Assembly: GCF_045037415.1 (NCBI RefSeq) | Contig: NZ_CP173438.1 | Source: Escherichia coli | GTDB taxonomy: Bacteria; Pseudomonadota; Gammaproteobacteria; Enterobacterales; Enterobacteriaceae | Direction: 5' to 3' (one strand) | DNA: 64,000 nt | Shown: in pieces, positions 62,558 through 63,619 of the stretch | Layout: each line of letters opens with the position of its first letter | Position numbering within the stretch: the first letter of the stretch is position 1 | The notes under the pieces: model-generated | Database searches by the model: none | What the model was told of the DNA's origin: nothing | The model's input: only the letters and a program-made list of their open reading frames with translations | Program-made: the position numbers and the translations under genes

Positions 62558-62582
62558 TCCGCTGGTGGGGATAATGTCGTTG

Positions 62583-62627
62583 ATATCCTCTGATGAGGAT
62601 AAAACAAAGCCAGCTCATCGGCTGGCT
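62583..62627. terminator. two hairpins between terL and the convergent 135-aa gene
   Basis: TATCCTC-TGAT-GAGGATA (62583-62600) and AGCCAGC-TCATC-GGCTGGCT (62607-62627); the second is followed on the minus strand by TTTGTTTT and contains the 135-aa gene's stop codon. Confidence 0.5.
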
Positions 62628-63022
62628 GTTTGTGACATGTCACTGTGTTGTTGCTCGCTTAACTTCTGCTTCAGCAAGTAACCTTCAAGCATCCAGATTT
62701 TGTTTACAGCATTCTGCCGGGCAATCTTCCGACCAATTTCTGCATCAAAATTTTCCGGACTTGCACAGGCACTCTCTCCGGTGACAGTGAAGCCATTCTT
62801 CAGCACCAGTACGCAGAAAGTGAGAAGGTGCAGAGCATCAGGGGTGGCTTCGACATAAGGCTCCGGATTATAAATAAGGTCATCTTCTTTAGCCTGGTGA
62901 TCACCCTGCGCAGCAGTGAAAAAATGCTCACTGCAAATGAGGCCTTCAATTTTCTCAGGTGTTACACGCGGTGCCGTTTTGCCTTTCTCAACGATTTCTT
63001 TTTCGATTTGCTGGTCGTTCAT
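62615..63022 (-). CDS. hypothetical prophage cargo protein (135 aa), reverse to the structural genes
   Basis: clean ORF on the opposite strand between terL and a tRNA; no confident homology from memory. Confidence 0.55.
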   Translation of the reverse strand: MNDQQIEKEIVEKGKTAPRVTPEKIEGLICSEHFFTAAQGDHQAKEDDLIYNPEPYVEATPDALHLLTFCVLVLKNGFTVTGESACASPENFDAEIGRKIARQNAVNKIWMLEGYLLKQKLSEQQHSDMSQTASR

Positions 63023-63033
63023 AATCTCACCTT

Positions 63034-63060
63034 AAAAAAATGCCCGGCGAACCGGGCGAA
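63034..63060 (-). terminator. rho-independent terminator between the tRNA and the 135-aa gene
   Basis: minus-strand reading GCCCGGTTCGCCGGGC followed by TTTTTTT. Confidence 0.6.
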
Positions 63061-63220
63061 CTGGAAGCAATGAGTTATGCCTTCCGTGGCTGTACTGGTT
63101 TACAGCATGAAGTCATCGCAATGGCGTCCTGCTGTAAAAAGGGCGGTGATAGTCCTTCAAGGGAAACCATCACCGCCAAGCCCCTGGAACTTCTGGCATC
63201 ACGGTCCTTAGGCGTGATTC

Positions 63221-63297
63221 TGGCGTGGCATGCAGGATTCGAACCTGCGACCAACCGCTTAGAAGGCGGTTGCTCTGTCCAACTGAGCTAATGCCAC
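63221..63297 (-). tRNA. tRNA-Arg (anticodon UCU), prophage-encoded
   Basis: reverse complement folds as a 77-nt cloverleaf: acceptor GUGGCAU/AUGCCAC, D-arm GCUC/GAGC, anticodon stem ACCGC/GCGGU with loop CUUCUAA, T-arm GCAGG-UUCGAAUC-CCUGC, 3' CCA encoded; differs from the host argU sequence as I recall it. Confidence 0.85.
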
Positions 63298-63619
63298 AAC
63301 GCTGAGAGCACTTAGCCTGTTAAGGCGCCACACTTTGTCGCGGCTCCATAAATGCTCTCATCGTTGTACCCTCGTCTCTTCCGAGGCGTCACACCGAATC
63401 GCCGGGATGGTGAATCCCCGTGCGCGGAATAAAACCGCTCGACTTGCACATTCCGGCTACCTGGTTCGTTTGCCCGAGCAAGGGAGGGTGCCCCTTAAAC
63501 GTATCCAGACCGCTATCGGCGCATGTGCCATACGCCGTACTGCTCAAAATAAAAGCTCACTCCACCTGTTCAATTTAACGACAATCCAGTCAGGTTAGTA
63601 ACCGGAATGAACTCTTTGG

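Follow-up and report, generated by a model that had tools for sequence, protein, structure and literature searches.

The stretch of DNA analysed here (64,000 nucleotides of the Escherichia coli contig NZ_CP173438.1, hereafter the window) carries an epsilon15-like prophage (Uetakevirus; phiV10/TL-2011b type), and this work concerns a short unit oriented leftward, on the minus strand, between the prophage terL and portal genes. In blastn searches the region was 96-100 % identical at the DNA level to the Uetakevirus phages phiV10, TL-2011b, O157 typing phages 9 and 10, and vB_EcoP_ZX5. The gene order is terS, terL, the leftward unit, approximately 420 bp without an annotated gene, an open reading frame (ORF) for 68 amino acids (aa) and the portal gene. 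In its own direction the unit comprises a candidate promoter, an unannotated structured RNA element of about 245 nt, a tRNA-Arg gene with the anticodon UCU, two terminators designated T1 and T2, and an acb4-like gene for a 135-aa protein, which is convergent with terL (stop codon at 62557).

A first-pass annotation made from the sequence alone had proposed that a minus-strand unit breaks the rightward terS-terL...portal operon, and the ORF map and the phiV10 gene order bore this out. Its description of a tRNA and a small cargo ORF, bracketed by terminators and set against the late operon, stood up; its classification of the ORF as a moron encoding a protein with no assignable function did not. 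The structured RNA 5' of the tRNA and the terminator T1 were overlooked. Both features that it did describe are ordinary once identified: a phage tRNA that most likely serves codon supply, and an Acb4-family protein. Of greater value than either is the adjacent pseudoknotted RNA, supported by covariation and absent from Rfam and from the annotations examined.

The structured RNA element

The non-coding DNA at 63034-63720 was found by blastn to be kept in Salmonella (84 %) and Klebsiella (75 %) phages, even beside a swapped ORF. An alignment of six copies revealed invariant blocks between indel-rich segments, with compensatory changes visible, and RNAalifold run on 27 full-length copies gave five helices with double compensatory changes in 15 of 46 pairs. 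The element, delimited by alignments, covariation and a covariance model to 63298-63541 on the minus strand, is built of a 5' domain (approximately 63365-63538), comprising helices P1 to P4 and a pseudoknot, and a 3' domain consisting of the long helix P5 (63365-63349 with 63314-63298) around a variable insert. In the 5' domain, P1 is a hairpin at 63537-63517, P2 joins 63512-63506 with 63463-63454, P3 is made of the pairings 63443-63441/63403-63401 and 63418-63415/63407-63404, and P4 of 63386-63382/63374-63370. The pseudoknot connects loop nucleotides 63412-63409 with 63395-63392, and an invariant 19-mer, GGUAGCCGGAAUGUGCAAG, occupies 63461-63443.

The structure of the 5' domain was evaluated on 37 copies of at most 95 % identity. 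In the alignment 98.4 % of cells could pair as named, in comparison to 30-46 % when the partners were slid by 1-3 columns; both sides had changed in 11 pairs (81 cells), and the covariation score was reached by none of 500 shuffles. The pseudoknot between the loop UCACC and the downstream GGUG was paired in every sequence and showed one covariation (UAACC with GGUU). The covariance model, designated R1, scored the window copy at 141 bits (E=5.5e-43). The RNA was assigned to the minus strand, which is also the strand of the tRNA, since the frequent G-U pairs fit only that strand. The unpaired stretches are near-invariant from phages of Enterobacterales to those of Stenotrophomonas. We conclude that this is a real, conserved, structured RNA element of an undescribed family.

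The word undescribed applies to Rfam 15, the RefSeq/GenBank annotations and the full-text literature searched; apparently the family is missing from these, and a description elsewhere is possible. A cmscan of 62000-64000 against Rfam 15 at E<=1 returned no match other than the tRNA, and a lambdoid copy (see below) scanned at E<=5 gave chance-level matches only. The invariant strings were not found in the relevant full-text literature searched, which again leaves room for a description elsewhere, and nothing relevant was encountered in the literature on the phiV10/epsilon15 tRNA, the P1 ban region or RNA motifs in lambdoid prophages.

On the strand opposite to the RNA, the element is covered by hypothetical ORFs in several phage records (mEp460, as gp37, PhiR63_1 and a Stenotrophomonas phage are examples), and in the window a mechanical ORF of 87 aa lies at 63335-63598 on the plus strand. 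These could suggest that the 245-bp stretch is not an RNA at all but a small protein gene, on either strand, or a site acting at the DNA level. No conserved ORF was detected, however: stops occur in all six frames in 8 of the 37 diverse copies, and the lengths of the copies are spread over all residues modulo 3, which rules out the protein-coding and antisense-ORF readings. Compensatory substitutions within the helices and the G-U pairs fitting the minus strand alone also speak against a gene or DNA site, and such an identity is hardly credible. Annotations of ORFs antisense to this RNA are probably gene-calling errors. The same probably holds for PhiV10p04 in the phiV10 RefSeq record (NC_007804.2), a hypothetical coding sequence (CDS; 2672-2923, equivalent to window 63040-63291, plus strand) antisense to the tRNA-Arg, which that record leaves unannotated; the tRNA is annotated in other related phage records.

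The exact 19-mer GGTAGCCGGAATGTGCAAG was found in at least 120 IMG/VR contigs. A search with an independent pattern, derived from the first hairpin, also retrieved at least 120 contigs, and the invariance of the 19-mer is real rather than a by-product of the search, because nearly all copies found in this independent way carry it too. The collected set comprised 218 instances, 205 of them in distinct contexts. By blastn the element was present in 1839 of 5426 complete E. coli genomes (approximately 34 %), with 554 places on plasmids, and none of 40 E. coli records sampled across the whole blastn ranking carried an annotation on it. It occurs in P1, P7, D6, SJ46, RCS47, mEp460, the cdtI phage, Stx2c phages and others, either unannotated or under antisense 'hypothetical' ORFs. 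In a survey of one genome per species all matches on sizeable contigs belonged to Enterobacterales; two further matches came from short contigs of metagenome bins labelled Bacillota and Lachnospiraceae.

Three kinds of surroundings predominate in our description. In about 70 Uetakevirus contexts the element runs at its 3' end straight into the 5' end of tRNA-Arg(UCU). No other tRNA was found joined immediately behind the element, and this fusion was seen in 52 of the 205 contexts; where another tRNA was linked to the element, which was rare, ARAGORN called it Met(CAT), the tRNA-Ile of P1 included. The P1-like phage-plasmids carry only the 165-nt 5' domain, with tRNA-Ile 15 nt upstream and ban (dnaB) about 90 nt downstream of it. 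The sequence corresponding to 63294-63538 also recurs without the tRNA beside repressor genes, as in a lambdoid E. coli phage and a Stenotrophomonas siphophage. The 80 contexts in SfV/mEp460-like lambdoid phages start from an S24-type cI-like repressor gene and its terminator. Next come a promoter-like TTGCAC-17-TATATT, which overlaps the palindrome TTGCACAATGCGCAA, and, about 45 nt beyond, the element; behind this lie a 120-nt spacer, a terminator, a long hairpin and yfdP-yfdQ-yfdR, and the representatives examined have no annotated N gene at this place. The K-12 CPS-53 region upstream of yfdP contains no copy, and K-12 transcriptomes are therefore uninformative on the element. Overall, it looks as though the element always heads an apparently repressor-controlled early transcript.

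Some minor features of the RNA and its lambdoid surroundings were also observed. The P5 insert of several homologues (e.g. BUCT554, SPN9TCW) contains T-arm-like hairpins such as GGGTTCGAATCCC, GCGGTTCGATTCCGC and CTGGTTCAATTCCAG, and the P5 domain, at about 72 nt, is approximately tRNA-sized, which hints that the 3' domain of the RNA descends from a tRNA or mimics one. The lambdoid spacer (4236-4365 of one record, about 120 nt) has a cloverleaf-like fold of three hairpins closed by GUUGUGGU/ACCACAAC (z = -2.2), was not recognised as a tRNA by ARAGORN or Rfam, and contains GUUGU/ACAAC motifs that allow alternative pairings with helix P5. The stretch AUGUGCAAGUCGAGCGGU (63443-63420, minus strand) resembles what we take to be the 5' region of 16S rRNA, ACAUGCAAGUCGAACGGU; presumably this is a coincidence, and in other copies of the RNA only UGCAAG(U/C)C of the stretch is conserved.

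The tRNA-Arg and the cargo gene

ARAGORN found exactly one tRNA within the 64-kb window, a tRNA-Arg(TCT) with an encoded CCA at 63221-63297 (minus strand), and neither a transfer-messenger RNA (tmRNA) nor any further tRNA. The Rfam tRNA model (RF00005) matched it over the full model, 1-71, with 73.3 bits (gathering score, 29; E=1.2e-15). The first-pass call of a tRNA-Arg(UCU) was thereby confirmed, and the first-pass coordinates of the unit are right to a few bases. The 5' end of the tRNA abuts the final base of the structured RNA. It is about 84 % identical to argU of K-12: the two agree throughout the D arm (D loop GGA.AG) and the T arm and in the anticodon loop, CUUCUAA, they have the arginine identity elements A20 and C35 in common, and compensated changes distinguish their acceptor and anticodon stems.

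A role of the tRNA in reading rare codons, as originally suggested, agreed with the codon usage. AGA was used 6.8 times per 1000 codons in all CDS of phiV10 and 5.95 times in the prophage part of the window, compared with 1.46 in the host part, for which the long ORFs served as the reference; the corresponding values for AGG were 4.4, 4.65 and 0.21. AGA usage is thus approximately 4-5 times higher in the phage genes than in the flanking host genes. Supplying codons is the role best supported for this tRNA because the phage genes use AGA/AGG far more than the host does, and most likely it provides decoding capacity for AGA/AGG-rich phage genes. The tRNA has the anticodon UCU in common with phage-borne rare-codon tRNAs, such as the tRNA-Arg genes argN/argO of Stx phages, and with host argU, and blastn of the tRNA region also matched annotated tRNA-Arg genes of Stx2 phages. 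The difference is that here the 5' end is fused to a structured RNA of 245 nt and the tRNA belongs, within the packaging/head operon, to an anti-defence cassette.

Some phage tRNAs escape defences directed at tRNAs, and the tRNA-Arg(UCU) might primarily be a counter-defence spare that replaces a host tRNA destroyed by an anticodon nuclease. It shares its cassette with an anti-defence sponge, as predicted below, and the compensated changes in its acceptor and anticodon stems set it apart from argU. Nuclease-evading phage tRNAs, however, usually differ in the anticodon loop; this loop is the same as in argU, which argues against nuclease evasion, and the enrichment of AGA/AGG in phage genes already accounts for the tRNA. 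We regard a spare-tRNA function as rather unlikely.

The 135-aa ORF (ATG start; 62615-63022, minus strand) had been left without an assignable function. In hmmscan it matched Pfam PF13876 (Phage_gp49_66) at E=5.1e-34 and 117 bits, with residues 20-121 covering the whole model (1-82 of 82), and more than 8000 PF13876 homologues were found. This is the family of Acb4 of phage SPO1, a homotetrameric sponge with four pockets between its protomers, sequestering 3'3'-cyclic GMP-AMP (3'3'-cGAMP) and related signals of the cyclic-oligonucleotide-based antiphage signalling system (CBASS) (bioRxiv 10.1101/2024.12.30.630793). According to the same work, eight of eight purified PF13876 homologues bound 3'3'-cGAMP, with the window protein not identified among them, and homologues from phages of Gram-negative hosts also bound 3'3'-cAA. 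Against the PDB sequences phmmer found Acb4 (9e4w) at E=0.004. An AlphaFold 2 monomer model based on 30 homologues (mean pLDDT, the per-residue confidence, 84; pTM, the predicted template-modelling score, 0.72) showed the elements H-H-E-H-H-E-E-H (H, helix; E, strand), that is, the N-terminal helices, three antiparallel strands and long C-terminal helices of the SPO1 Acb4 protomer. In a Foldseek search of the PDB with this model the best 13 matches were all chains of 9e4w (probability 1.0, target template-modelling score 0.60-0.69, 25 % identity), and no other fold matched convincingly (next match, E=0.18). By sequence and predicted fold the protein is a member of the PF13876/Acb4 family, and its predicted function is counter-defence rather than defence, superinfection exclusion or lysogenic conversion.

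Acb4 of the Bacillus phage SPO1 (PF13876, formerly the 'N4 Gp49 / Sf6 gene 66 family') and the window protein are alike in being small, in the full-length family match and in the protomer fold, and both have the ENF...EIGR motif; the window protein is prophage-encoded. They are only about 25 % identical, and the window protein is longer (135 aa versus 96 aa): more residues precede the shared core at the N-terminus, and the C-terminus ends in a read-through extension of 11 aa. The ligand contacts of SPO1 Acb4 are K36, F48, E49, V56, Y57, F62, N63, I66, T70 and K81 (bioRxiv 10.1101/2024.12.30.630793). In the phmmer alignment the stacking/hydrophobic residues F48, F62 and I66 are kept, and K36 and K81 are not confidently aligned. 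A point against a sponge like that of SPO1 is that five contacts are changed (E49->T, V56->C, Y57->A, N63->D, T70->I), and for this reason the ligand specificity, or even the binding, could differ; the sponge activity is predicted from sequence. The closest homologue, a 124-aa 'Gp49 family protein', is 98 % identical, and the phiV10 version 66 %. The window ORF is 11 codons longer than the former, ending in ...LSEQQHSDMSQTASR-stop (62615-62650) in place of ...LSEQ-stop; apparently the stop codon was lost and translation runs into the terminator hairpin.

In relatives the place of this gene is taken by various others. As the first downstream ORF in about 70 distinct Uetakevirus contexts, Acb4-like proteins were found 22 times, a 64-aa family 11 times, a 261-aa family 8 times and Tad2-like proteins 4 times, next to others (one of which occurred twice). 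In the Klebsiella phage ST512-KPC3phi13.3 the same slot, after tRNA-Arg, T1 and T2, holds a 173-aa protein with a Tad2-like domain (Thoeris anti-defence 2; PF11195/DUF2829; E=2.4e-25), and in Salmonella SPN9TCW an unrelated protein of 168 aa. In the window protein a Pfam search detected no Tad2 domain. The junction of T2 and the ribosome-binding site (RBS) AAGGTGA, up to the start codon, is kept ahead of different cargo ORFs. Tad2 is a sponge acting against Thoeris, and Acb4 and Tad2 are often fused or found together (bioRxiv 10.1101/2025.07.12.664507). Since relatives carry other genes there, including a Tad2-like sponge, this conserved junction with exchangeable counter-defence cargo is a cargo slot and not a defence moron. 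The tRNA, the Acb4-like gene and the Tad2-like gene of relatives mark a conserved counter-defence cargo slot in epsilon15-like phages, which can be mined for new sponges or inhibitors, the more so as several cargo families found there have no known function.

Candidate promoter, operator-like palindromes and terminators

A candidate promoter was read from the sequence at 63620-63656 on the minus strand: a -35 motif TTGACA (63656-63651), a 17-nt spacer and a weak -10 motif TACCTT (63633-63628). The -10 motif lies within the palindrome TTACCTTTCAGGTAA (63634-63620), which is a copy of an operator motif of the prophage. The arrangement TTGAC(A/C)-17-TACCTT with the palindrome is conserved in 58 distinct Uetakevirus upstream regions, in both subgroups. 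The motif TTACC-N5-GGTAA occurs 16 times in the window with one mismatch allowed, against 1.0 expected. All exact copies lie in the prophage, at 53157, 53219 and 53931, flanking the repressor gene, at 56262 and 56324, at 60457 and at 63620. The repressor gene (53291-53875, minus strand) encodes a helix-turn-helix transcriptional repressor of 194 aa and is divergent from a cro-like gene at 54030-54260, which exact copies likewise flank. The copies are mostly paired (53157-53171, 53219-53233, 53931-53945, 53979-53993, 56262-56276, 56324-56338, 60457-60471, 60475-60489 and 63620-63634); they surround the repressor gene, precede the ORF at 56342 and lie close to where terS starts, and one copy stands ahead of the RNA-tRNA unit. 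The set looks like the targets of a single phage DNA-binding protein whose regulon extends into the regions for replication, recombination and packaging.

The leftward unit may thus be controlled by the prophage repressor or Cro and would then be an early, derepressible unit rather than a lysogen-expressed moron. Because the promoter candidate is overlapped by an operator copy, expression would be expected on infection or induction rather than in the lysogen. Two points weigh against this reading. The -10 motif is weak, and since only three of its six positions match the consensus, the consensus scan misses it and calls no sigma-70-like promoter anywhere in 62300-64000; moreover, the operator-like palindrome could serve some other regulator instead of the repressor. 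No experimental operator mapping was met with in the literature reached, and the vB_EcoP_ZX5 paper maps none.

The consensus terminator scan of 62300-64000 called four hairpins on the minus strand, compared with 1.7 +/- 1.5 in shuffled sequences. T1 (63132-63177, minus strand) is a 14-bp hairpin, GGCGGTGATGG...CTATCACCGCC, followed by CTTTTTAC; the scan called it at 63177-63142, with CTTTTT after it. T2 (63057-63035, minus strand), consisting of GCCCGGTTCGCCGGGC and ATTTTTTT, was called at 63057-63042 with six G-C pairs ahead of ATTTTTTT, in line with the terminator that the first-pass annotation placed at 63034-63060. The third hairpin (62608-62627) lies between the convergent terL and acb4-like genes and overlaps the stop codon of the extended ORF, much as had been proposed for 62607-62627. 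In phiV10 the equivalent site is annotated as a rho-independent terminator on the plus strand, and the hairpin probably terminates transcription in both directions. The fourth, weaker terminator-like hairpin is at 63606-63585. In addition, a hairpin with a stem of about 10 bp and a loop of about 20 nt, UUUACAGCA...UGCUGUAAA, is located between T1 and T2 (63094-63136, minus strand); it is non-coding, yet common to E. coli, Salmonella and Klebsiella phages.

A homologue of T1 (TGGCGGT...ACCGCC-CTTTTTAC) was found 361-365 nt past the start of the element in 60 of 67 Uetakevirus and 51 of 76 lambdoid contexts, counted with a finder allowing long loops; a stricter finder under-called the lambdoid contexts (10 of 80). 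T1 is the conserved end of the RNA-tRNA unit, and given this fixed distance in both groups, the promoter, the element, the tRNA or a tRNA-sized spacer, and T1 are one unit kept as a whole. Promoter-like and operator-like sequences, the promoters being predicted, lie 45-85 nt upstream of the element in lambdoid and Uetakevirus contexts, with T1 downstream. As to the cargo gene, a terminator was present about 35 nt ahead of its start in 67 of 70 Uetakevirus contexts.

In the window the RBS AAGGTGAG (63033-63026) follows T2 directly and precedes the ATG at 63022. The U-tract of T2, which ends at 63035, abuts the RBS and so leaves no room for a promoter of the ORF itself; the autonomous promoter of a classic moron is absent. 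Inspection of the sequence between T1 and T2 by eye gave no convincing sigma-70 promoter, the best candidates being TTTACA-17-TGACTT and an extended -10-like TGCTGTAAA. Without a promoter of its own, the ORF must be transcribed by polymerases that have passed T2 and, almost certainly, T1 before it. Either the two terminators would be leaky, giving much RNA and tRNA and little sponge mRNA, or the polymerase would be made to read through them.

The first-pass view that the 135-aa gene is a moron expressed in the lysogen for defence, superinfection exclusion or lysogenic conversion fits a reverse-oriented cargo gene in a late operon with terminators on both sides, in a slot that is variable among relatives. 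Against it, family membership points to counter-defence, there is no promoter space between the U-tract of T2 and the RBS, and the only upstream promoter candidate overlaps an operator copy. The moron explanation is in our judgement quite improbable.

Possible functions of the RNA

Taken as a whole, the locus is best explained as a leftward, probably repressor-controlled early cassette delivering an RNA, a tRNA and a predicted sponge, an account we consider probable though by no means secure. A single promoter near 63656-63628, overlapped by a copy of the operator palindrome, would give one transcript containing a leader of about 80 nt, the RNA of about 245 nt, tRNA-Arg(UCU), T1, T2, the 135-aa gene and the bidirectional terminator. 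Cleavage by RNase P at the 5' end of the tRNA would free the RNA, and the cargo gene would be reached only by transcription passing T1 and T2. Read-through may be enabled by the RNA in cis, either through the polymerase transcribing it or through what becomes of the transcript, and the 135-aa protein, as a tetramer, would sequester CBASS cyclic dinucleotides early in infection or induction.

Control of read-through in cis, at the two terminators before the cargo gene, is our leading idea on the RNA, though an uncertain one held only tentatively. It is plausible because of the position of the element and the extreme conservation in its unpaired regions. The nutL/putL sites of other lambdoid phages occupy an analogous position. 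The put RNA of HK022, an RNA-only processive antiterminator, is about 70 nt long with two stem-loops and is present in two copies per genome (PMC9378689). The element resembles HK022 putL/putR in its location shortly after a predicted repressor-controlled early promoter and ahead of terminators; it differs from put in its size (165-245 nt), in having five helices and a pseudoknot, and in occurring once per phage, and antitermination by it is proposed by analogy. Identity with put RNA was ruled out by size, architecture and copy number, and by the absence of any R1 match in the HK022 genome at E<=1. Several observations count against cis antitermination: there is one copy per phage and not one per early promoter, and the P1 version, placed after tRNA-Ile, is without the 3' domain and has no terminator before ban. 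A stand-alone small-RNA gene would likewise account for the promoter and for a conserved T1 at constant spacing, and the promoter, the processing and the read-through are all deduced from the sequence.

Such a stand-alone gene could produce a stable RNA with its own early promoter, ended by T1 and split from the tRNA by RNase P, which would bind a conserved host component for take-over or counter-defence while the downstream genes receive leaky read-through. A trans-acting RNA of this kind is possible, if doubtful, and may fit the unit from promoter to T1 as well as a cis role does. It would agree with the promoter-like sequence upstream and T1 at a fixed distance with or without a tRNA in between, with the linkage to tRNAs, of which tRNA-Arg follows the element in 52 contexts and tRNA-Ile precedes it in P1-like phages, with unpaired stretches that are near-invariant from Enterobacterales to Stenotrophomonas phages, and with conservation whatever genes come next. 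No target or partner can be named for it, though, and the place of the element at the head of early operons, before terminators that precede promoter-less genes, suits a cis function equally. A sensor resembling a riboswitch, in which a small molecule, perhaps a nucleotide signal, would be the ligand of the conserved 5' domain and termination or processing downstream would depend on it, would be in keeping with the complex architecture with its pseudoknot, the highly conserved junction and loop nucleotides beside a variable 3' part, the alternative pairings of the GUUGU/ACAAC motifs and the terminators downstream. Ligand sensing is nevertheless unlikely, because the downstream genes are of no single class (tRNA, acb4-like, yfdP-yfdR or ban) and, in the window, an entire tRNA intervenes before the first terminator; in addition, no known riboswitch family in Rfam matches. 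Stable RNAs co-transcribed with phage tRNAs are represented by T4 species 1 and species 2, and short terminated leader transcripts, early or late, by lambda 6S and StxS from PR'. The likeness of these to the leftward unit is organisational only, consisting in a predicted non-coding RNA on a tRNA transcript, bounded by a promoter and a terminator and placed before protein genes.

There is some chance, which we rate as low, that the RNA opens a new class of regulatory RNAs in phages, as a self-sufficient leader of put-like or ligand-sensing type. If so, this leader class would gate early and counter-defence genes in three unrelated groups of temperate phages, the P1-like, SfV/mEp460-like lambdoid and epsilon15-like ones, and it would have been overlooked although phage P1 and about one in three complete E. 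coli genomes contain it. Control of read-through by the RNA would make it a second RNA-only antitermination device and would explain early-left expression in those lambdoid phages in which no N gene is annotated at this place; action in trans would make it a new phage RNA for take-over or counter-defence.

Two further ORFs of the window were noted. The 68-aa ORF (63725-63931, plus strand; MCMGSSPSVPATPEVQAAPQEQ...) belongs to phrog_831, is a homologue of epsilon15p03, was kept in all Uetakeviruses examined and has a low-complexity sequence with many Ala, Gln and Arg residues. The other, a very long ORF of 2693 aa, is at 34693-42774 on the plus strand, upstream of the prophage part.

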